Source of the DNA: Candidatus Woesearchaeota archaeon
GTDB taxonomy: Archaea > Nanobdellota > Nanobdellia > SCGC-AAA011-G17 > PNOQ01
Length of the DNA stretch: 47,983 nucleotides
Assembly (NCBI GenBank): GCA_043812195.1
Contig: JBDRML010000023.1
Location: 1-47,983 of the forward strand
Reading direction: 5' to 3'
In this document: positions 16,372 to 47,304 of the stretch, one piece after another
Layout of the letters: each line of letters opens with the position of its first letter
Position numbering within the stretch: position 1 is the first letter of the stretch
Program-made: the position numbers and the translations under genes
The notes under the pieces: model-generated
Seen by the model: the letters and a program-made list of their open reading frames with translations, nothing else
Databases searched by the model: none
Told to the model about the DNA's origin: nothing

Positions 16372-16890
16372 CTAAGAACTAATTTCAATACCAGTTCTAC
16401 CAGCTATTCTAGATTTAGCCATTTTCATGATAGTTTTGGCATCTTCAACAGATTCTTTTTCAACATCAATCTCAAATATCACAGACCCCACCTTAACTAT
16501 AGCAGCAACACCCATTGCCTTTCCAAAAGAATGAGCCATTCCAGTCTGCATTCTATCTGCTCCAGCACCTGTAAGCATTTTATTCTCTCTCAATACTTGA
16601 TGTGGAACTACATTAATATGAAAATGATAACCTTTAGGTCCAAATTTTCTTTGAAAGTGCTTATTTAACATCATTCTACAAGACTCTATAGCATTGTGCC
16701 TAATTTGAAATTTTTCTTTAGAAATTAACTTAACTCTAGAAGGAAACTCTTTTTTAATATCTCCCATATGATATCTAACTACTTTTGAAGCAGGAATAGA
16801 TTTAATGAATCCCTTTTTCTTATACTTAGATTTTCTAGTGTATCCTCTTGATGGAAGTCTATAACATTTTCCTTTTCTTAATGATGCCAT
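16372..16890 (-). CDS. rpl10e: 50S ribosomal protein uL16 (L10e)
   Basis: QIRHNAIES, PHQVLRENKMLTGAGADRMQTGM..SFGK. Confidence 0.96.
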   Translation of the reverse strand: MASLRKGKCYRLPSRGYTRKSKYKKKGFIKSIPASKVVRYHMGDIKKEFPSRVKLISKEKFQIRHNAIESCRMMLNKHFQRKFGPKGYHFHINVVPHQVLRENKMLTGAGADRMQTGMAHSFGKAMGVAAIVKVGSVIFEIDVEKESVEDAKTIMKMAKSRIAGRTGIEISS

Positions 16891-16891
16891 T

Positions 16892-17149
16892 TTATTCTAC
16901 TTTAACTTTAGTTCCTATAGCTTGTCCAGGAAGCCCCTTTTCAAATTTAACTCTTACAGCACCTTTATTTCCATGCTCTTTCATTACAGTGCCTTTCATT
17001 TCCTTACCTGAAGGAGTTACCCAAGTTACAGTCTTTTTAACTAATTCCTTAGATTTCTCTTTATTATCATAACCTTCAACTTTAACAATCATCTGGTTAG
17101 GATACTGTGTCTTATGACTCCCCCTATAATTTATTATAACTCCATCCAT
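16892..17149 (-). CDS. rpl35ae: 50S ribosomal protein eL33 (L35Ae)
   Basis: GVIINYRGS, HGNKGAVRVKFEKGLPGQAIG; start reassigned to ATG 17149. Confidence 0.93.
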   Translation of the reverse strand: MDGVIINYRGSHKTQYPNQMIVKVEGYDNKEKSKELVKKTVTWVTPSGKEMKGTVMKEHGNKGAVRVKFEKGLPGQAIGTKVKVE

Positions 17150-17195
17150 CTTAAAAATGAGGAAAAAAATCAGTTTATAAGCTTTTCTAATTATT

Positions 17196-17741
17196 TTAAG
17201 CAAGTGCAGCAAGCTTATATCCGCCTGTGGGTTTTACAGAATCTATTATAAACTTTTTTTCTGAGTCGTTATATCTGCCAGTAATAATTATTGGAACGTT
17301 TCCGCCTTTTTTTGAAGCTCTATAAAGTAAATACCCACCCTTTTCAAAAGAACTAATCTCATTACAATTAATTTTCGGAAACTCAAAACTAACAACGCCC
17401 GTTATATCTTTACAATGGCCAACATAACCCTTTGACCCATTAAATCCTTTTGGTGTGCTTGATAAGTAAGGTATTTTTACTTCAAGAGCACATTTCTTTT
17501 CATGATCCAAGGCATCTATAATATTTGTTAGTTTCATATCATCTGAAATATCTGCTTTAGAGTTAGGATTAATAATAAGCTCGAGACCATGGCTTTTACG
17601 AATGTTTTTACAAATTAATGGAGTTTTAAATCCCTGATATGCCCCATGTGCAATAAAACCTACTGGGACTAAAATTATAAGATAACTTAAAACATCCAAT
17701 GTTTTATTCCATATATCATTAAGATTCATTAAATCATTCAT
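17196..17741 (-). CDS. Hypothetical protein with N-terminal TM helix
   Basis: Third gene of a tight operon; C-terminus resembles that of 18001-18378. Confidence 0.6.
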   Translation of the reverse strand: MNDLMNLNDIWNKTLDVLSYLIILVPVGFIAHGAYQGFKTPLICKNIRKSHGLELIINPNSKADISDDMKLTNIIDALDHEKKCALEVKIPYLSSTPKGFNGSKGYVGHCKDITGVVSFEFPKINCNEISSFEKGGYLLYRASKKGGNVPIIITGRYNDSEKKFIIDSVKPTGGYKLAALA

Positions 17742-17994
17742 TTTTTCTAGCTTTATCTTTTAATTTAACATATTTTCCACTGTTTAAAGAATCTTCATAT
17801 AATTCACCATCTCTTCCGAATTTATCAAGATGTAATACATTATTGCCAGAACTTGTTTCATAAATAATTGCTCTTCTTATTTCAGGCTCAGCAAAAAAAT
17901 TATAAGCAGTTAATATTGCAGTAGCAATTATTGCTCCCACACAACCATATAAATATAGTTTTACTTCACTATCAATATTAAATAATTGTCTCAT
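17734..17994 (-). CDS. Hypothetical protein with N-terminal TM helix
   Basis: GGAG RBS; operon position. Confidence 0.6.
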   Translation of the reverse strand: MRQLFNIDSEVKLYLYGCVGAIIATAILTAYNFFAEPEIRRAIIYETSSGNNVLHLDKFGRDGELYEDSLNSGKYVKLKDKARKNE

Positions 17995-18000
17995 TTTTTT

Positions 18001-18378
18001 TTATTTTTCTCCTTCTTGAGAGATTTCTCTTCTCAGCACTCCAGAATGTTCACCATAATCAATTGTTGATATTTCTATTAAAGTATAATGTGGAAAAATT
18101 CCTTCAAGTTGTCCTGTTACAACTACTTCTTTACCTGTTTCAGAAGAAGCTTTTAACATACTTAATGCTTCAATATTATGGCTTATATGCCTTAAGAATA
18201 TATCTTCACATCTTATTGATAAATTTCCTTCCTCTAAAAAGAAATGGTAATTCCCTCTTGTTCCATCTTCTAAAGAACATATTTGAACACCATGTGCTAC
18301 TCCACGTATAGAATATCTTCCTCTACTGACTTCTTCTTTTATAATTTCTGAAACGCTTTTAACTTGAGTATTTGCCAT
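18001..18378 (-). CDS. Hypothetical protein
   Basis: First gene of operon behind a TATA promoter and AGGT RBS. Confidence 0.65.
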   Translation of the reverse strand: MANTQVKSVSEIIKEEVSRGRYSIRGVAHGVQICSLEDGTRGNYHFFLEEGNLSIRCEDIFLRHISHNIEALSMLKASSETGKEVVVTGQLEGIFPHYTLIEISTIDYGEHSGVLRREISQEGEK

Positions 18379-18412
18379 TTTTAACCTAAATCCAAAACCT
18401 AATTTCCATTTA
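18369..18412 (-). repeat. 44-bp leader repeat, copy 1 (TATA end to first codons)
   Basis: 41/44 identical to 31972-32015 on the + strand. Confidence 0.9.
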
Positions 18413-18521
18413 TAAGTCTTTCGTTTTGTTACTACTATTAATAAATATCAATAAAAAATCTTAAAACTTTTAAAAATTATAAATGATAATCTTTATATAA
18501 AATAAAAGTAATTAAAAAATA

Positions 18522-21500
18522 ATGAATAAACAAATATTGACTCAAATAATTCTAATCTTTATGATACTAATATTAATTATCACAATAATAAGTCCAGATT
18601 TAATAAAACTAGCTCCAAAATTTATAAAACAAGATTATGGTCTTAGAGAAGATTATAATATTGAAAAATATAATGTTTTAAAAATGGATTTTGTTTCTTC
18701 AAATAGCTATTCTAGTGGAAATCCATTTACAGATGTAGATTTTACAATAGAATTCACAAATCCAACAGGCCAAAGAATACTTAATACAGACGGATTTTAT
18801 AATGGAAATGGAAATGGAGACCAAAACGGTTATGTTTGGTCAGCAAGATTTTCAGGAGATGAAGTCGGGACTTGGACTTATGAAACTTTTTCAAATGAAC
18901 CTTCATTAAATGGTTTAACAGGAACAATCAATGTGCAAATTTCATCAAACAAGGGTCCAATAATAAAAGATGAAGAATATCCACACTGGTTTAAATTCAA
19001 AGAAGGAGAAAATGTTCAGTTACATGGTAATTTTTTAGATAATGTAGCTGGAGGGAATCCTTTAAGATTCACTCATTTATATTTATCAGAATTTGTATCA
19101 GACACAGAAAGACAACAGTTCATTGACAGAGCAAACCAAATAAAAGCAAACAAAATGAACATTTATCTTGCAAATGTGGGTGATTATGGCGGCTCATTCC
19201 CAACAACACCTTGGTTAGGAACATACAATTCAAATAATAAAGAAAGATTTGATATTTTAAGATGGGAAAAATATGAAGTAGAAATAGCCAGATTAAACCA
19301 AGAAGGAATTATAGCAGAGCTTTGGTTTTTTGCTGATGATTCTGCATTTGGAAATATTAACGATGCGAATATAGATCTTTTCTTACAATATGGACTTTCA
19401 AGGCTTTCAGCATATCCAAATGTAATTTTTGTACAAGTCTTAGAATGGGAAGAAATGTATTCTAATAATTGGAATCGTGCTAATAATCATGGAATATTTA
19501 TGAGTCAACATAATCCATATGAAAGGTCAATCTCTATTCATGGAACAACAGGAAATTTTGATTTCCCAAATGAAGAATGGACAAAATTTATGGCAATTCA
19601 GACAGGAAATACTGTATCTTATCCTTCAAATTACGACATGACTTTAGTAAATTATAATCTTCCAAATAATCCAAAACCACTAATAAATGAAGAATTTGGA
19701 TTTAATAACGACGATTATGATCAAAACCCAGTTGATTCTTTAAACATGAGAAAAAAACTTTGGATAGCTTTTGTAGCAGGTACAGCAGGAACTGGAACAG
19801 GATCAGGCATGAAAGAATTTGACGAATTTTTCGATTTAGTTAATCCAGAATTCTGGAAAATGACTCCAGATGATTCAGTATTTGTAACAGCAGGATATGA
19901 AACTCATTGTCTCGCAAACTCAGGTCAAAGTTATATTTGCTATGCACCAGTTGGAGGAACAATTCAATTAAACAGCAACAGTATACAAGAACAATATAAT
20001 TATCTTTGGTATGATCCATTCACAGGAGTTATAACAGAACAAGGATTTATTGATCCAGGTAACTTGATTTTAAATGCACCAAACTCAAATGATTGGGTTT
20101 TATTTTTAGATGTTGCTAGCCAGCAAGTTTCAACCTGTAATTTAATTGCAGAACCAGACAGAGAAATTGGTTCATTTAATAGTTTATTAACTGCAAGTTT
20201 TGAAAATTTACCTCCAGATATAACTCTTACATTAATGAAGTGCTCACAAGAAGATGGAGGAACACAACAAATAATAAATAATAATATAGCAACAAGATCC
20301 TGTAATTATCCAGAAGTTTTAGAAGAAACAACATATCAAGCAAGCGCAACAGCAGAAGAAACACAATGCATAACTTTAGTAACTGATTTACCAATTCCTC
20401 CAGAAAATGTTTTTCAAGATGATTATACAATAAATATCTATTCAAATGATTTCATAAACCAATTAACTATAGATAATGTTGACTGGGATCATTATTCAAA
20501 TTATTATCCTTTAGGTGGAGGAGAAATACCTCCAGACTCAAATGGAATAAATGGATTATGGCATTTTAATGATGATCTTTCAGATGGAATGGCAAATGAT
20601 GATTCTGGAAATGGAAATGAAGGCACATGTACAATTGGAGTAACCTGTCCTGATTATATTATAGAAGGTCAAAGATTTGGTGCAGGCGCCTATTTATTTA
20701 ATGGAGTAACAGATTATATTGAAATTCCACAAAGCACAATATCTACATCAGGAACCATATCCATGTGGATAAAACCAACAGGAATGCAAGACAAAACAAT
20801 TATGGATGCAACAAATGATATTGGATCTAACAAATATTTCTTTATAGACATAAATGATCAAGGTTTATTAAGATTTTGGATGGAAGATTATAATGATGCA
20901 GATTTTAGAGTTGACTATGATGTAAGCCAGTATGATCCTAATGACTGGTATCTTGTAACAGGAGTTTGGAATTTTGGATCTGCACCAGCATTAGAACTAT
21001 ACTTTAATGGAGAGTTAGTTGATTCTGATACAAGAGCAAGCGGACCAATATCAGTATTAGCAACACCATATATAGGTCATGATAGAAGTGAAGAAGACAC
21101 AAACACTATGTGGAAATTTGGAGGAGCAATAGATGAAGCCGCGATTTGGAGTATAAATCTTAATCAAGAGGAAATATTAGCTCTTTATTCAGGTGGAGGT
21201 GGAGGGCCATCTACAGGAAGCTATGAATCTACATTAATAGAAACACCCCAGTTAGAATCAGTATTAGTAGAATGGGAATCTACAAATAACAATGCAATTC
21301 ACTTTGCAATAAGTCCAGATTCCAATATTTGGTGTAATGTTTATAATGGACAAATAATCACAAGAAATAATTGTGGATATTTTCCTTCAGAAAATTTCTA
21401 TTACAAAGTAGAATTTTCAGATTATTCTCTTATAAATAATGTTTATTTTGAATGGGAAGAGAGAGTAGAACTTCCTGGCGGTGGCGGAGGTAAAACACTG

Positions 21501-22667: not shown

Positions 22668-23063
22668 CTACACTAACTCTTCTCTTGGAACCAAAGTTGT
22701 AGTTAGATTTCTTTCCAAGTATGTTACTTGGGCTGCATCAAACATTGGAACTCCAGAAGCTTCCATCAATGTCATAATTTCTCCTGATTTGCGTTCCTTG
22801 GCATAATTTATATACATATATTGTATTTTCGATGCAGTTTCTCTTGAAGGCTCTACCTCTGTTATTTCTCTTATAAGCCTCATTCTACCAAAATCTCCAT
22901 CTTTCAAACAATCTCGATAAGTATTTTGAACATCAAGATATAATCTATTTGGATTCACTCCAAAATTTTTTGCTACCATTGATACAACATTGTAAGGATG
23001 TTCTTTCATTCTCTCCTCTAACTTTTCTACTTGACTCTTTGGTTGTTTTCTTCCGAATATCAT
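22668..23063 (-). CDS. Hypothetical protein
   Basis: 131-aa ORF with its own promoter at 23094-23123. Confidence 0.65.
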   Translation of the reverse strand: MIFGRKQPKSQVEKLEERMKEHPYNVVSMVAKNFGVNPNRLYLDVQNTYRDCLKDGDFGRMRLIREITEVEPSRETASKIQYMYINYAKERKSGEIMTLMEASGVPMFDAAQVTYLERNLTTTLVPREELV

Positions 23064-23093
23064 TTTTATCTCTTAATTAGTATTAATTTTCCA

Positions 23094-23123
23094 TTTATAA
23101 ATCTTTCTATTTGTAACCACTTA
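23094..23123 (-). promoter_or_regulatory. Promoter with upstream TAAGTGGTTAC box, BRE and TATA
   Basis: Minus strand CTAAGTGGTTACAAATAGAAAGATTTATAAA; matches 62-92. Confidence 0.6.
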
Positions 23124-23193
23124 GAAATAATAATTAATCCTTTTCTCTCATAAAAACATAAGCTTTAAATAACCCTTTAAAATTAAAGTTAAC

Positions 23194-23576: not shown

Positions 23577-24056
23577 TTATGTAAAACCTTCAATTTTACA
23601 ATCTTCTACAAGATCTTCTATACTTTTATAATCTGATCCCAAAACACGAAAAATATTCTCTACAACACAAACCCTTTTAGGAAGTTTTGTTCCATCAACA
23701 TATGAAGAAAGAGTTTGTCTTGGCAATCCTGTTTGCTCAGCAAGCCAAGTTTTATCATGCCCAATATCCCTTAATCTATTATTTATAAAACTACTAAGTA
23801 CTCTATTTTTAAATCTCTCACGTCTAATCATAAATCTTTTCTTTAAATAACTACCATAGCTTTCATAACCTCTTTTATGAATAGCTTCTTTTGAATAATC
23901 ATATGTAGAATTATAACCAGTTTTATCTCTGTTTGCATAAACAAACACAGTAGTACGAGATATTCCTTCTATTCTAGCTATTTCTCGAGAAGTATAACCA
24001 TTTCTTCTAAGTCTATCAATCGATTCTATTTGTGATTTATCTAATTTTTTTGGCAT
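23577..24056 (-). CDS. Double helix-turn-helix protein
   Basis: N-terminal GYTSREIARIEGISRTTV; C-terminal XRE-like WLAEQTGLPRQTLSSYVDG...P. Confidence 0.75.
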   Translation of the reverse strand: MPKKLDKSQIESIDRLRRNGYTSREIARIEGISRTTVFVYANRDKTGYNSTYDYSKEAIHKRGYESYGSYLKKRFMIRRERFKNRVLSSFINNRLRDIGHDKTWLAEQTGLPRQTLSSYVDGTKLPKRVCVVENIFRVLGSDYKSIEDLVEDCKIEGFT

Positions 24057-27722: not shown

Positions 27723-28382
27723 ATGAAAAAACTATTATTACTATTAATAGTATTATTTGTAATTAATTCTGTTAGCGCAGCAACCATTTCAGGAAATATC
27801 TACAGTTTTGATTTTCAACAATTAGAAGATGTTAAAGTAACAATAAACACAGTACCAGGACAAATCCATATATCAAAAGACGGAACATACTCATTTGAAG
27901 TCCCTCAAGGAGATTATACTCTAACAGCAGAATATTATGTTAATAGCATCTTAGATTCAAATATAGAAGAAAACATTACAATAACAAATGATGGTAATTT
28001 TATCAGAGATCTTATTTTATTCCCTAATTTAGATGATATAGATGATGATTTTGATCCTTTTTTAGATGATGAAGAAAAACCCACATTATTAATTTATTTA
28101 TTAATAGCTTTAGCAGCTATATTTGTAGTTATATCTTTTATCTTTATTAAAAAAAGAAAAACAAAGAAAAAATTAAAAGAAATATCAAAAGACACAGGCG
28201 ATTTAGAAAAAGTTTTAGAATTTATCAAAAAAGAAGATGGTAGAACCACACAAAAAGACATTAGAAAAGCTTTGGGCATGTCAGAAGCCAAAGCCAGTTT
28301 AATAGTAACAGAACTAGAGCACAAAAATATAGTAAAAAGAATAAAAAAAGGAAGAGGTAATGTTATAATTTTGAACAAATAG
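27723..28382 (+). CDS. Membrane-anchored winged-helix regulator with extracellular carboxypeptidase-regulatory-like domain
   Basis: Signal peptide, DGTYSFEVPQGDYTL, TM, then GRTTQKDIRKALGMSEAKASL...LE...KKGRGN. Confidence 0.8.
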   Translation: MKKLLLLLIVLFVINSVSAATISGNIYSFDFQQLEDVKVTINTVPGQIHISKDGTYSFEVPQGDYTLTAEYYVNSILDSNIEENITITNDGNFIRDLILFPNLDDIDDDFDPFLDDEEKPTLLIYLLIALAAIFVVISFIFIKKRKTKKKLKEISKDTGDLEKVLEFIKKEDGRTTQKDIRKALGMSEAKASLIVTELEHKNIVKRIKKGRGNVIILNK

Positions 28383-28437: not shown

Positions 28438-28662
28438 ATGGAAAAGAAAATATTTAATTTTACAACAATAATAGAAAAAGGAGAAGATGATTGGTATATA
28501 GCTACTGTTCCAGATATTCCTGGGTGCTACACTCAAGGTAAAACTATTGCACAAGTTCTAGAAAGAATTAAAGAAGCTATAGAAGTATGTTTAGAAGCTG
28601 ATAAAGAGGACATAGAACCAATGAAATTTGTTGGAGTCCAACAGGTAGAAGTTAGAGTATGA
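28438..28662 (+). CDS. hicB: HicB-family antitoxin
   Basis: YIATVPDIPGCYTQGKT...IKEAIE. Confidence 0.9.
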   Translation: MEKKIFNFTTIIEKGEDDWYIATVPDIPGCYTQGKTIAQVLERIKEAIEVCLEADKEDIEPMKFVGVQQVEVRV

Positions 28663-28892
28663 CAAAACTCGTTCCTATTTCTGGAAAAAAATTATGCAAA
28701 ATTTTAGAAAAAATAGGTTTTGAAAAAATATACGGAAAAGGAAGCCACATAAGATTTAAACATAAAGATGGCAGAAGAACTGTTGTTCCAGTTCATGGAA
28801 ATGAAGAAATAGGCATAAGTTTACTAAGAGAAATTCTAAAGCAAATAAAATTAAGTAGAGATGATTATAATAATCTTAGAAGAAAAGTTTAG
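28659..28892 (+). CDS. hicA: HicA-family mRNA interferase toxin
   Basis: LEKIGF...KGSH..FKH.DGRRTVVPVH...LLREILKQ. Confidence 0.92.
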   Translation: MTKLVPISGKKLCKILEKIGFEKIYGKGSHIRFKHKDGRRTVVPVHGNEEIGISLLREILKQIKLSRDDYNNLRRKV

Positions 28893-30809: not shown

Positions 30810-30914
30810 GGGCTCATGGCTTAGTGGTTATAGCGTCGCCCTATTTTGTTGCCCGAAAGGACTCAAAAGGCGAGTACAAGGCGAAGGTCCCCGGTTCGAA
30901 TCCGGGTGGGCCCA
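30810..30914 (+). tRNA. tRNA-Val(TAC) with a 32-nt intron (30843-30874) at position 33/34
   Basis: GGGCTCA/TGGGCCC acceptor stem; spliced arm TCGCC-CTTACAA-GGCGA; T arm CCCGG-TTCGAAT-CCGGG; BHB motif; CCA not encoded. Confidence 0.92.
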
Positions 30915-31908: not shown

Positions 31909-31971
31909 TGTTTTTATTAAAGACCACTCAAAACATATAAAAAGCTTTCTTTTGGCGATTAGTAAGCTTTT

Positions 31972-32015
31972 TAAATAGAAATTAGGTTCTGGATTTAGGT
32001 TAAAAATGGTAAATA
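31972..32015 (+). repeat. 44-bp leader repeat, copy 2
   Basis: 41/44 identical to the reverse complement of 18369-18412. Confidence 0.9.
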
Positions 32016-32362
32016 AATCACAAATTATCTTTGGGGCAATAGTAATTGGAGCATTAGGCTATCTTTTCTTTCCTCGTCCAGAACCAGCCGAATATTTTGT
32101 TAAAGAAGGTACATTTAGGAACCTTAATGCTATCGCTTCTGTAGATCATAGGGGTAGAAGAATAGTTTTAGATAAAAAGAATGATTACAGAGATGATTTT
32201 CTTGAAGGCATAGATGCAAACCAAGATCACCACTTTGAAAAAATAACATTAAATAATGATGACTTAAGTTGGCATATATTACAACAATATGCACGTGATG
32301 ACACTTTAGAATTAGCTTATAAAACTGTTATGAATCAAACACAAGAAAAGGGAGAAAAATAA
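32006..32362 (+). CDS. Hypothetical protein with N-terminal TM helix
   Basis: AGGT RBS; shared leader. Confidence 0.65.
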   Translation: MVNKSQIIFGAIVIGALGYLFFPRPEPAEYFVKEGTFRNLNAIASVDHRGRRIVLDKKNDYRDDFLEGIDANQDHHFEKITLNNDDLSWHILQQYARDDTLELAYKTVMNQTQEKGEK

Positions 32363-32368
32363 GAAAAA

Positions 32369-32611
32369 ATGGAAGAAAAAGGAAAGGCATACGGCACTAT
32401 TAAAAATGTGACGCAAAAAATAACATTATTGGAAAGATTAAGTAGGGAGGGATTTATTGTTCCTACAAAAGATCGAATAGGAAATATTTACCCTATTATG
32501 ATTCCAAACGGAGAAGGCAATCGGGTACATGTTGGAGATATTATTTATAACCATGTTTACACAGTAAACTGCCCAAAATTGGATGAATTTTTATCTAATT
32601 ATGAGTTTTAA
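32369..32611 (+). CDS. Hypothetical protein
   Basis: GGAG RBS; operon position. Confidence 0.6.
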   Translation: MEEKGKAYGTIKNVTQKITLLERLSREGFIVPTKDRIGNIYPIMIPNGEGNRVHVGDIIYNHVYTVNCPKLDEFLSNYEF

Positions 32612-43014: not shown

Positions 43015-44292
43015 CTATATCCAATTTACTTTCAAAAAATGAGTAGCACAACTAATACAAGGATCATAGGCTCTGATTAACTTCTCAATTTCATATTGAA
43101 TTTCTTCTTTAGATTGTTTCTTCAAATTATTTTGAACTAGTTTCTTAATATCTAACTCCATATTAATCTGATTCTGTTGTGTAGGAACTACAATATTGCC
43201 TTCTTTTATTGTTCCATTCTTAGTAATAGATAATCTATAAAATAAAGTTCCTCTAGGCGCCTCAATTACCCCAACACCTTCGCAAGCTTTAGGAGTGTAT
43301 TTAACAGGTTCTTCAGGTTTAAAATTATTTTTCTCAATTATATCAATACTATTATCTATTGCATGTAAAATCTCAATTCCCTGAGCTAAATTATTATGGA
43401 AAATATTATTAGATGGAAATAATTTCAAATATTTGGCAGCATCTCTCTTTGTATTTTTATGCAAAGCATTCTTATTCAGATTTATTCTTGCTAAAGCACC
43501 AACCATATACGTACCTCCTTTAAATTCATATCCAACTGCCTGAGAATAAGGCAAAACAACCTTATGTAAATACTTAAAATAATCTTTCTCCTTTATTCTA
43601 GTTCCCCTACTAGTAAGTATTTCACCATCCAAGAAATCAAAACCATTATTTACCAATCCAACAAAATTAGTTCTTCTAACATAATCAATCTTAGAATTAT
43701 AATAAATATCCAAAACTGGAAATAATCTTTTTCTCACATTTTTCAATTCTTTAACTAAATTTTTCAATTCTTCATTTTTAGGAATATTAGCAAAACCACC
43801 AACAGCAGGATAAGGAGCATGAACAGCTCTTCCAGCAACCACAGTACTTAATAAATTTCCAACTTTTTTAATAGCAAAAGCATCTTTCAACAAATCAGCT
43901 TCTGCACCTTCAAAATCCAAAACAGAATCTTTATTAAAAATATCAGGCAAAGTAAATAAATAAATATGTAAAGCATGATCTCTTATCATTAAACCATTCA
44001 TAGTCAATTTTTTCAATAATTTAGTTTGTTCACTAACTTTAACACCCAATGCATTCTCAATAGCTTCGAGACAACACATAGTATGAGCAATACTGCAAGT
44101 TCCACATATTCTAGCTACAGACTGAGCCAAAGTATCAATGCTTCTTCCCCTAATAGCCTGAGTAAAAAATCTTTTATTATCAGTAAATTTAATTTTAACT
44201 TTCTCAACTTTTCCATTAACAACTTTAACATCCAAATCAGCATGCCCTTCTATTTTACTTAAATTTTGTATATTTATATTGACATCTTTCAT
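43015..44292 (-). CDS. hydA: [NiFe]-hydrogenase large subunit, group 3 (3b sulfhydrogenase alpha-like)
   Basis: KIEGHA, ARICGTCSIAH (L1), EAPRGTL, VPTQQN, RAYDPCISCATH (L2) plus a short C-terminal extension. Confidence 0.92.
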   Translation of the reverse strand: MKDVNINIQNLSKIEGHADLDVKVVNGKVEKVKIKFTDNKRFFTQAIRGRSIDTLAQSVARICGTCSIAHTMCCLEAIENALGVKVSEQTKLLKKLTMNGLMIRDHALHIYLFTLPDIFNKDSVLDFEGAEADLLKDAFAIKKVGNLLSTVVAGRAVHAPYPAVGGFANIPKNEELKNLVKELKNVRKRLFPVLDIYYNSKIDYVRRTNFVGLVNNGFDFLDGEILTSRGTRIKEKDYFKYLHKVVLPYSQAVGYEFKGGTYMVGALARINLNKNALHKNTKRDAAKYLKLFPSNNIFHNNLAQGIEILHAIDNSIDIIEKNNFKPEEPVKYTPKACEGVGVIEAPRGTLFYRLSITKNGTIKEGNIVVPTQQNQINMELDIKKLVQNNLKKQSKEEIQYEIEKLIRAYDPCISCATHFLKVNWI

Positions 44293-44380
44293 TACATATT
44301 TGGCAAGGATACCCTACAGTTTAGTGTAGGGAGGAATTGCCATCCTCCATAATATTTTTCTTATACATTTTTTAATATGA

Positions 44381-44892: not shown

Positions 44893-47304
44893 TTATTCAT
44901 AAACCCATTCTGAACCAAATATTGTACCATTATTATTATTGCTTGTTGAGTCATAAATCATCGAACCACTTGCTTCATTAAACTTCCAATATGTAACAAG
45001 ATATTGCTCATTACCAGTTAGTTCTCCATTCATATTCTGTTGAAGCTCTGTTTGAGTAAGAGATTTATTCCATATACGGACTTCATCTAAGGTGCCATTA
45101 AGGTAATAAGATGGTGGACCCCAAGATACCATACCCATTAATAAGTTATTGCTTGTTACTTGTAAAGGACCGTAAAATGTGTCGTTTCCAACTTCTTCTC
45201 CATCAATATAAATTCTAACTATATCTTCAGTATCATCCCATGTGAATGCGTAATACTTCCATATATCACTCTCTTGGGACTCATTAACAATTATATAATG
45301 AGATCCGTCAGTAGAATTCCATAAATTAACTATAATACTTGTAGGTAAAACCCTTATTCCATAATTATTGTTTTTCATCAATAGGGTTTGTTCTCCTACC
45401 ATATTAAATTTTACTCTTGCTTCAAAAGTTATCTTATCACTAAGGCCTAAACTACCAGAATGAGTTGTATTTATATAATCATTTATTCCGTTAAAACTTA
45501 GTGACGATCCATACATAATATTATCTTTAATTGAAGTTTCAGTTCCACTTACAATTTGATTATAATTTAAGTTTTCATTCTCTAATACATTCAAAATATT
45601 TAATAAAGGATTAACATTTGTATAGCTTTCATTGCTTGTTATATAATTAAACGCCCAATCTTGATTATTTAAAACAGCTACAGCATCAAAGCTACCGATT
45701 GTATTTGCTCTATCCAAACCAACAGTATAAATTTGCTTATCCTGATATTCGATAGAAGTAGGAATAATATTATTAATTCCTTCTGAAATAGCTTCTCTTG
45801 CTTCTGTTTCATTATCTGTAGGAGGAAGTGTATAAGTAATATTCAATAAATTTCTTATTGTAGAATCGCCATCTGCTCCTGAAATATCCCAATTAGAGTA
45901 CCAGTGCTGGTCTGATAGGTAATCTGAGTTATCCCAATATATAACATGGAACCATCTGTCATTCTGCAGAGATAAATTAAATTGTTTAATAACATCACTT
46001 CCTATTGTGCTGTTGGCTATTGTAATATATGTTTCACAAGGGTTGTTAGCAATGCAGTTAGTAGGCTCTTCATCCCAGTTTATTTCAATTCCAGAGTAAT
46101 TTCCATCAGCCCAGTCTCCTCCAGTTGCTCCGCCTTCTAATCCTGAGCCGTCTGCTACGCAATCATCTCCGCATGTATATATTTTTGTTTTCCAGTCAGA
46201 TGGGCCATCATTTTCAGGGCTGTATTCTGTTAATCCATTCCAAATTCTTATAGTAAAGTTATAGGCATCTTTTGGAATATTTGAATCATTTAAATTAAAA
46301 GCAAAGTAAGCCCTCCATTCTGTAAGGGGAGAGCGCCTGTCTCTTCCTGTTCTTGGATCAGTATTATTAAAAGCTGTATAGTTTGATTTCTGACCGTTTA
46401 TATAGCCCGATACTTCATAATCATCATCTACACAAATAATTCCATCTCCAGAAGTGCATGAAATAGGACCCGCATCTATCCAATATAGTTCTACTTTATC
46501 CTGTGTATTAATATTTTTTATTTGTAATAATAATAAAATATTTCCATCCCCTTCATATCTTAATCTCATATTTGTTGTATCATTCCATTTTATTATATGA
46601 CCTCTTTCTGATTCTTTGTCTCTTATTTCTATAAAATCAGTTAGATTTAGTATTTCAAATGAATCTTTATTGTCTAATGTAAAAGAAGAACATATTCTAT
46701 CGTAATAGGGATTTGTATCATTTCCTATATTTTGTATGTTACAATAATATACTTTATCATAATCGTTGTTATTTTCTATGTTTATGTCTTTTAATTTCCA
46801 GACATAATAAATTGGAATATTTGTGTTAAATTGATTTGGAGCCCACCATGTAAATGAATTTTCCATATATTTATCATTTAGTTTTTGTCCTCTTATCCAT
46901 CCTGCACAATATTCTTGGTTATTATTAGATTTACATTTGTATATGCTTTGGTTCCAGTAAGTTTGATTATCTGATTCTATTATATTTGTGAAATTACTTA
47001 GATGATTTTGGGATAGCCAGTTGAAATTAGTATTTTGATAATATCCCAAGCCAAATTCATTTGTCAGCCATGTGGATCTTTCTCTTGCATCTGTTAGATT
47101 TGCTCCGTTAAAGAATTGAGTATAATCAGAAGATATATTTTGCCATATATTGGATTCTGCTTCTCCTAAAGGATTTTGATTCCATGTGTGTAGAAAGTTA
47201 TCTGTGTATTCGTAGCCTATATTGGTTTCCGCAGAACTTATAGAAAAAGCTAATAATATGAACATAATTATTGTCGATATTCCTGTGAATTGTTTTCTTT
47301 TCAT
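44893..47304 (-). CDS. Large secreted protein with C-terminal LamG/concanavalin-like domain
   Basis: Signal peptide; many N-x-S/T sequons; SLSFNGINDY, GTLDEVRIWN, YWKFNE.SG..IYD. Confidence 0.8.
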   Translation of the reverse strand: MKRKQFTGISTIIMFILLAFSISSAETNIGYEYTDNFLHTWNQNPLGEAESNIWQNISSDYTQFFNGANLTDARERSTWLTNEFGLGYYQNTNFNWLSQNHLSNFTNIIESDNQTYWNQSIYKCKSNNNQEYCAGWIRGQKLNDKYMENSFTWWAPNQFNTNIPIYYVWKLKDINIENNNDYDKVYYCNIQNIGNDTNPYYDRICSSFTLDNKDSFEILNLTDFIEIRDKESERGHIIKWNDTTNMRLRYEGDGNILLLLQIKNINTQDKVELYWIDAGPISCTSGDGIICVDDDYEVSGYINGQKSNYTAFNNTDPRTGRDRRSPLTEWRAYFAFNLNDSNIPKDAYNFTIRIWNGLTEYSPENDGPSDWKTKIYTCGDDCVADGSGLEGGATGGDWADGNYSGIEINWDEEPTNCIANNPCETYITIANSTIGSDVIKQFNLSLQNDRWFHVIYWDNSDYLSDQHWYSNWDISGADGDSTIRNLLNITYTLPPTDNETEAREAISEGINNIIPTSIEYQDKQIYTVGLDRANTIGSFDAVAVLNNQDWAFNYITSNESYTNVNPLLNILNVLENENLNYNQIVSGTETSIKDNIMYGSSLSFNGINDYINTTHSGSLGLSDKITFEARVKFNMVGEQTLLMKNNNYGIRVLPTSIIVNLWNSTDGSHYIIVNESQESDIWKYYAFTWDDTEDIVRIYIDGEEVGNDTFYGPLQVTSNNLLMGMVSWGPPSYYLNGTLDEVRIWNKSLTQTELQQNMNGELTGNEQYLVTYWKFNEASGSMIYDSTSNNNNGTIFGSEWVYE

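Follow-up and report, generated by a model that had tools for sequence, protein, structure and literature searches.

Two small operons in the 47,983-nt contig JBDRML010000023.1 (Candidatus Woesearchaeota archaeon), analysed here over its full length as the window, share two short border segments around unrelated first genes. The shared parts occur in two inverted copies 13.5 kb apart, and the body of the first gene, together with everything after the start codon of the second, is non-homologous between operon A (genes A1-A2-A3) and operon B (genes B1-B2). The explanation that we favour, with about even confidence, is that both operons are recombination mosaics sharing one 'operon head', in which the head was duplicated and the body of gene 1 replaced, or in which the borders were transplanted. 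This head would measure ~400 bp and would comprise the core promoter through codons 3-4 of gene 1 (border P), and then the stretch from the final 5-6 codons of gene 1 to the start of gene 2, with the stop codon and a 6-nt A-rich spacer between them (border J). The pair looks like a one-off mosaic that reuses expression signals and not like a demonstrated gene-shuffling system. A first-pass annotation, made without database searches, had described constant borders with exchangeable cargo; the constant borders and the unrelated gene-1 bodies stand, while the proposed gene-shuffling or diversification system is not supported, given two copies of each border, no third copy, no recombinase among the 30 ORFs scanned and no hairpin.

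The window is contig C23 of the archaeal genome G000, which comprises 938,338 bases in 45 contigs, has a completeness of 90.4% and a GC content of 29.5%, and is the sole representative of its genus in the genome set compared. Archaeal marker genes in the window include L35Ae (16892-17149, minus strand) and L10e (16372-16890, minus strand). The archaeon lives in groundwater; four DNA sequencing runs from four groundwater or metagenome studies contain its sequence, and no RNA run was among those listed.

The shared promoter and start segment

Border P is found ahead of A1 and B1 at the following positions:

18369..18420 (-), border P copy A: B recognition element (BRE) and TATA box ..GAAAGACTTATAAAT at -43..-30, spacer with TTAGGTT-N6-TTAGGTT, short predicted 5′ untranslated region (5′UTR), A1 start codon ATG with codons 2-4
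31964..32015 (+), border P copy B: matching promoter, spacer and start region ahead of B1, inverted relative to copy A and 13.5 kb away

The core of the match, 18369-18412 (-) against 31972-32015 (+), is identical at 41/44 positions both by direct reading and by blastn (E 6e-15), exactly as first annotated, and a repeat search lengthens it to 52 nt at 88% identity (18369-18420 / 31964-32015). When the two starts are anchored on their ATG and compared from -48 to +12, 48/60 positions are identical; the mean over 6482 candidate starts is 21.0 (standard deviation 3.6), and the next best reach 34-38.

The BRE/TATA reads GAAAGACTTATAAAT in copy A and GTAAGCTTTTTAAAT in copy B, and the TATA begins at -37 in both. 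Throughout G000, TTWTAWA starts peak at -31..-28 from the ATG (141/680 open reading frames [ORFs] of at least 150 aa) and fall at -37 in 5, with BRE-like words just upstream of the TATA and Shine-Dalgarno (SD)-like words enriched at -18..-7. Because TATA-like words pile up at -31..-28 before start codons, the genes of G000 are mostly leaderless. With the TATA beginning at -37, transcription of both operons is expected to start ~7-9 nt before the ATG, so that the 5′UTR would be very short. Border P is thus mostly core promoter, TATA-to-start spacer, very short 5′UTR and codons 1-4. The first-pass annotation had called it a leader, which holds for a shared segment at the 5′-end of both operons and would not hold for a long leader.

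The upstream part of border P follows the general promoter consensus, which is also common to L35Ae. The spacer from TATA to start, in which 27/29 positions are identical between A and B, is peculiar to this pair, and its direct repeat TTAGGTT-N6-TTAGGTT occurs nowhere else in G000. A looser promoter class in the same genome shares the TATA at -37, the start context TTAAAAATG and GAAAGATTTATAAA, at 34-38/60 anchored identity against the mean of 21. Its listed members, from the anchored comparison and the repeat family, have no J-like junction:

23064-23132 (-) in the window: looser promoter, listed at 23063 (-)
C4:8459: looser promoter
C11:4836: looser promoter
C25:9122: looser promoter

A structured RNA leader (riboswitch, attenuator or small-RNA target) was rejected on the lack of any Rfam family at border P, on folds at the level of shuffles and on the predicted 5′UTR of ~7-9 nt. 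At the gathering threshold, the only Rfam match over the window is a tRNA at 30810-30914, and the secondary structure of the borders is no better than that of shuffled sequences (fold z-scores of +1.03, -0.36, -0.54 and +0.59). There are 0 terminator-like sites in 16800-18600.

The shared stop and restart joint

Border J lies at the joint between the first and second genes:

17992..18018 (-), border J copy A: last A1 codons Q E G E K, TAA, 6 A-rich nt, ATG of A2, with A2 in frame with A1
32342..32371 (+), border J copy B: last B1 codons Q E K G E K, TAA, 6 nt, ATG of B2, with B2 in frame with B1

The identity of 20/21 between 17992-18012 (-) and 32351-32371 (+), which had already been noted, is recovered by blastn (E 4e-5). 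It extends in the gapped alignment CAAGAA(---/AAG)GGAGAAAAATAA(A/G)AAAAAATG to 26/27 identical positions plus one 3-nt indel, and the protein tails accordingly read ..SQE-GEK* in A1 and ..TQEKGEK* in B1. A GGAG stands at -18 from the ATG of gene 2. Given this layout of stop codon, 6-nt spacer, in-frame restart and GGAG at -18, translational coupling of gene 2 to gene 1 would be expected in both operons. The A-rich run at the joint is A9 in copy A, and read-through or slippage there would fuse the gene-1 and gene-2 proteins in either operon.

Copy number and chance expectation

On both strands of the whole of G000, a 32-mer from border P (at most 7 mismatches) and a 21-mer from border J (at most 2 mismatches) match only at the two loci. 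Two matches were reached in 0/100 dinucleotide shuffles for the P pattern and in 0/100 for the J pattern. The search of related genomes that the first-pass annotation had proposed turned up no further copies and no alternative cargo: beyond the two copies in G000, the 239 other genomes of the order contain 0 matches to border P (at most 3 mismatches) and, despite its A-rich sequence, 0 matches to border J (at most 1 mismatch). Border P also has no match in the species-representative genome collection and 0 matches in viral contigs. Outside the borders, no segment shared by operons A and B is better than E 0.13 (blastn).

The only metagenome contig found with border P, L005, is independent of G000 and is 100% identical to it over 1040 nt of locus A, a stretch that takes in both borders and the same cargo. 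Of 153 short repeat pairs in G000, 8 distinct ones span an ORF start in each copy, and the A/B pair is the strongest of these.

Genes of the two operons

The five genes that follow from the two promoters are:

18001..18378 (-), A1: 125 aa, soluble, OB-fold-like by predicted model; one remote homologue (P0005)
17734..17994 (-), A2: 86 aa, one hydrophobic segment, no family
17196..17741 (-), A3: 181 aa, orphan with a hydrophobic segment at the N-terminus; closes operon A
32006..32362 (+), B1: 118 aa, N-terminal transmembrane segment at residues 5-23, orphan, no fold assigned
32369..32611 (+), B2: 80 aa, soluble, orphan

Operon A is taken to end at A3 because the downstream L35Ae has its own leaderless-type promoter. 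Judged by their native codon usage in frame, all five ORFs are real resident genes: their in-frame per-codon log-likelihoods of -3.46 to -3.79 bracket the genome mean of -3.64, with the other frames at -4.6 or lower. Hydrophobicity (KD19) reveals one segment each in A2, A3 and B1 (1.72-1.84; B1 1.76) and none in A1 (0.93) or B2 (0.44), and so the earlier description of the products as small membrane-associated orphans suits the first three proteins and not the last two.

No significant Pfam family was found for any of the five proteins, and none of the five genes has a paralogue within G000. A1 and B1 have no homologue in 40 relatives, and a word-based search of 5.8 billion proteins returned only self-matches for A1, B1 and A3. 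A1 has no relatives in the species-representative genomes. A viral origin was considered and rejected: viral contigs contain 0 matches to border P and no relatives of A1 or B1, PADLOC matched 0/6 proteins, and PHROGs gave two weak matches only (B2 at E 0.04, and an unrelated 131-aa gene at E 0.0063).

An exhaustive HMMER scan with A1 yielded one credible relative, P0005, a 112-aa singleton from one 8.3-kb metagenome contig with 33% identity (E 3.2e-4). A second candidate, P0004 (549 aa, E 1.2e-4), was judged to be a spurious match to a repeat protein. An Atlas model of A1 (predicted template-modelling score 0.76) resembles oligonucleotide/oligosaccharide-binding (OB)-fold domains at template-modelling (TM) scores of 0.57-0.62 over residues ~3-110. 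A soluble OB-fold protein is therefore suggested as a lead from predicted models, and it is consistent with the sequence pattern. Since P0005 stops where the last ~12 residues of A1, VLRREISQEGEK, begin, this shared tail would lie outside the modelled OB domain as an add-on to it. The structural comparison of cargo proposed at the outset was less productive for B1, for which the fold search gave no match above a TM score of 0.45, and single-sequence AlphaFold2 models were unusable for both proteins (pLDDT 33.9 for A1 and 42.1 for B1).

A1 and B1 are unrelated and not diverged paralogues. Their Smith-Waterman score of 24 compares with a shuffle mean of 26, and 341/500 shuffles score at least as high as the real pair, which agrees with the first-pass annotation of two proteins of 125 and 118 aa that both end in GEK and have no visible similarity. 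A2 and B1 are 32% identical over 44 aa, a level matched by 15/500 shuffles and, without the transmembrane segments, by 781/1000; homology of these two was rejected, as the score rests on the transmembrane segment. None of the cross pairs of operon A and B proteins is significant once the transmembrane segments are removed.

Just inside the borders, the cargo of each operon is flanked by a short direct repeat that encodes [ST]Q, namely CTCAAG in A (18363-18368 / 18015-18020) and CACAA in B (32019-32023 / 32340-32344). In real G000 genes, the chance of a longest common substring (LCS) of at least 6 is 0.047 (A) and that of an LCS of at least 5 is 0.166 (B), two cases that are non-independent because the borders are homologous.

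Further mosaics and plasticity in the same genome

The other repeat pairs in G000 that straddle two ORF starts number 7, and 6/7 stand ahead of unrelated proteins. The pair formed by C15 (17900-19200) and C45 (41400-42900) is a second case of the same borders with a different first gene: the same 53-nt promoter (83%) and a 54-aa MazE/AbrB-type gene (87% at the nucleotide level) surround first genes of 208 and 271 aa that are unrelated to each other. In C29 (92100-94300), a DUF4258 (BrnT-like)/DUF2283 pair immediately precedes the PheRS alpha gene and is enclosed by 51-nt direct repeats that are 90% identical. These repeats (93650-93699 and 94114-94163) span the promoter through the ATG, an arrangement that is the footprint of a Campbell-type insertion.

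The neighbourhood of locus A is itself plastic, because the sequence upstream of it differs in L005 and is absent from G000. L005 matches the locus at 100% from 18486 down to 17447, with a breakpoint at 18486/18487 that lies 66 nt upstream of border P. The 122 nt beyond it (L005:1-122) include the 3′-end of an ORF and have no match in G000, and the 1025-aa GH/LamG gene is not a neighbour of locus A in this variant. The position upstream of L35Ae, where operon A is sited, also differs among 24 family relatives. A single 15.4-kb island reaching from the ATPase gene to L35Ae finds no support: the ATPase, CAP, GH, 6PGL and 107-aa genes occur within ~1.5 kb of L35Ae-L10e in 0/24 of the relatives' loci, although these loci are short and the result is no refutation.

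Origin of the shared borders

The most likely history of the two operons would be that the head was duplicated and that the gene body was then replaced non-homologously; an equivalent outcome would arise if the two short border tracts had been transplanted to a different pair of genes. The set retained would consist of expression signals, that is, BRE/TATA, spacer, very short 5′UTR and start codon at one end, and stop codon, GGAG at -18 and in-frame restart of gene 2 at the other. The coincidence of the shared 5′ segment with the promoter register of G000 supports a mosaic origin. Because the shared remnants are exactly expression signals, transcription and translation of the two operons would probably come under common control, which would govern a predicted OB-fold protein together with several single-pass membrane proteins. 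Gene 2 would be coupled to gene 1, and a common repressor could possibly bind TTAGGTT-N6-TTAGGTT between the TATA and the transcription start.

Several observations weigh against the duplication of a head followed by replacement. Border J is kept as a 27-30-nt island between two replaced stretches, which random replacement would not predict and which hints either at strong selection on this island or at its own use as a site of recombination. Its GGAG at -18 lies at the outer limit of the SD positions in G000. No donor or intermediate form was found, and the absence of TTAGGTT-N6-TTAGGTT elsewhere in G000 means that no wider regulon backs an operator. The CTCAAG/CACAA repeats that flank the cargo suit insertion into an ancestral mini-ORF equally well. 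No description of such an arrangement was encountered in the literature searched on archaeal promoter duplication and leaderless genes, or on Woesearchaeota gene cassettes and recombination, where the matches listed were integron papers only.

The closest described concept is that of the promoter-early stem-loop (PeSL) cassettes of T4-type phages. In these phages, ~100-bp conserved elements with the stop codon of the preceding gene, promoter, stem-loop terminator, SD and start motifs flank ORFans, supply them with expression signals and have been proposed as the places where crossovers replace genes (Arbiol et al., 2010, PMC2839356; Comeau et al., 2014, PMC4122927). PeSLs number ~50 per genome, reside in hyperplastic regions, carry a bacterial sigma-70 promoter and form mini-circles (PMC2839356; PMC4122927).

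By analogy, borders P and J could be working recombination adaptors, such that gene bodies are exchanged in frame across the population by homologous recombination at regulatory sequences. This explanation, which we consider unlikely, would account for constant borders around unrelated cargo, for the persistence of border J as a short island between non-homologous stretches, for the other promoter-bounded modules in G000 and for the different context upstream of locus A in the independent contig L005 (breakpoint 18486/7), and PeSLs indicate that regulatory motifs can act as recombination sites (PMC2839356). The copy number argues against it, with two copies per border in G000 and 0 in 239 relatives, and with border P at 0 in species-representative genomes and 0 in viral contigs. 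The only other contig with border P, L005, has the same cargo, and its breakpoint is 66 nt upstream of the border and not inside it. No array or hairpin is present, and no integrase or recombinase domain was detected among the 30 ORFs scanned (~13.4-36.1 kb), where the only related match was HTH_7 in 23577-24056, without a catalytic domain. Borders of 27-52 nt at 88-96% identity would furthermore be poor substrates for homologous recombination. A bolder version, which we rate as slightly more doubtful still, would treat P and J as expression adaptors that double as crossover sites for in-frame swapping of gene bodies, an archaeal ORF-internal analogue of PeSLs within this lineage of very small archaea, in which the two loci would be occupied positions drawing on a pool of orphan genes spread through the population.

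A third explanation starts from an ancestral mini-ORF frame, consisting of promoter, ATG and ~9-11 codons that end in QE(K)GEK, stop codon, 6 nt and gene-2 ATG. Two copies of this frame would have received in-frame insertions at CWCAA(G) microhomology, giving rise to A1 and B1. The cargo is indeed flanked by CTCAAG/CTCAAG in A and CACAA/CACAA in B beside the borders, the joined borders give an open frame of 9 or 11 codons, and the tail of A1 lies outside the OB domain. The repeats are nevertheless weak (P 0.047 and 0.166, in non-independent cases), two independent in-frame open inserts of ~340 nt without their own start or stop are unlikely events, and an empty P-J frame was not found in G000 or in the 239 relatives. 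We regard this origin as improbable.

The low probability given to the mini-ORF frame applies equally to old paralogous operons, whose coding parts would have diverged beyond recognition while purifying selection kept the regulatory segments (operator and translation-initiation regions). The conserved pieces do fall at regulatory positions, gene 1 is of similar length (125 and 118 aa), and in both operons a 6-nt gap separates it from gene 2, which keeps its frame. However, A1 is a predicted soluble OB-fold protein and B1 is anchored by a transmembrane segment, and the hint of similarity between A2 and B1 (15/500) vanishes without the transmembrane segments (781/1000). DNA and protein similarity of the cargo is nil, yet 27/29 positions of a spacer that is usually free to vary are identical, a contrast that fits a recent common origin for the borders only. 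A simple pair of paralogous operons does not fit, with A1/B1 at shuffle level and an OB fold against a membrane anchor. The simple operon duplication that the first-pass annotation had named as its own counter-reading thus fares unevenly: G000 has two copies only, but their cargo genes are not diverged paralogues.

Chance resemblance of AT-rich, low-complexity sequence, or an assembly artefact, could be suspected from the GC content of 29.5%, the A-rich junction and the short-read assembly (141-nt contig-end overlaps), and is effectively refuted already, since 0/100 shuffles reach two matches, no other copy occurs in G000 or the 239 relatives, both operons have the P match before the J match with comparable spacing, locus A and its two borders recur at 100% over 1040 nt in L005, and the copies differ at 3/44 positions, unlike a collapsed repeat.

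Comparison with known systems

As in PeSL cassettes, short conserved regulatory sequences (stop, promoter and start) bracket unrelated ORFan genes in operons A and B. A PeSL is one composite intergenic motif, whereas 938,338 bases of G000 contain two copies each of two separate borders; these have no stem-loop, use an archaeal promoter and take in a few codons at each end of the gene. As for exchange endpoints, L005 is the single independent contig, and it departs from locus A at 18486/7, 66 nt upstream of border P. The pair is not counted as a PeSL, because the copy number and stem-loop features fail and the one breakpoint observed falls outside the borders, although it may work similarly.

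The Campbell-type insertion on C29 resembles the A/B pair in that a compact ~50-nt promoter with start codon was duplicated, so that neither the unrelated nor the resident gene is left without a promoter. Promoter and ATG form a single small unit because G000 is mostly leaderless. The C29 repeats are direct and immediately flank the insert; the A/B copies, on the other hand, are inverted, 13.5 kb apart and each at the head of its own operon, and border J is shared as well.

Integron platforms, with a Pc promoter, attI and promoterless cassettes bounded by attC, are similar in that constant signals express exchangeable genes. In contrast to integrons and clusters of attC sites lacking integron-integrases (CALINs), the A/B pair lacks an integrase domain among the 30 ORFs scanned, forms no attC-like fold and no array, and has its own promoter for each copy.

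In shufflon-like and mycoplasma vsa-type loci, inverted repeats at the 5′-ends of genes re-pair one expression site with silent gene bodies. Operons A and B are like such invertible switches in that the repeats at the two ends of a DNA segment are inverted and take in the beginning of a coding region. They differ in that each copy of border P is a complete promoter and start facing outward, and no silent cassettes and, among the 30 ORFs scanned, no recombinase were found. As the P copies are whole and outward-facing, an inversion of the 13.5 kb between them would leave the linkage of promoter and cargo unchanged.

In mostly leaderless genomes of <1 Mb, promoter and start codon make up a unit of ~40-50 nt, and copying or keeping this unit suffices to express a gene body joined to it. 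The A/B pair and the two further mosaics in G000 illustrate how orphan genes in such archaea can gain ready-made transcription and translation signals, and operons A and B are a concrete candidate for a co-regulated pair. If more cargo does lie between the same borders, the principle of phage PeSLs, in which regulatory sequences serve as recombination handles, would extend to cellular archaea; as found, the pair is an instructive evolutionary footprint and no new system.

Other features of the window and assembly

The 13.5-kb segment between the two copies of border P contains a HicB-like/HicA toxin-antitoxin pair at 28438-28892 (+), near which are a membrane-anchored MarR/DUF7343 regulator (27723-28382) and a double helix-turn-helix protein (23577-24056). 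The tRNA at 30810-30914 (+) is 105 nt long, matches Rfam at 56.9 bits and was missed by ARAGORN, a pattern that fits a gene which probably carries an intron of archaeal type.

Several contig ends of G000 overlap by exactly 141 nt at 100%, which indicates a short-read assembly, and the contigs concerned could probably be joined. The window also contains a 157-nt repeat (44137-44293) with 98.7% identity to C14:5247-5403, and weaker paralogous stretches at 45551-45815 and 47081-47225 correspond to sequence in C29.

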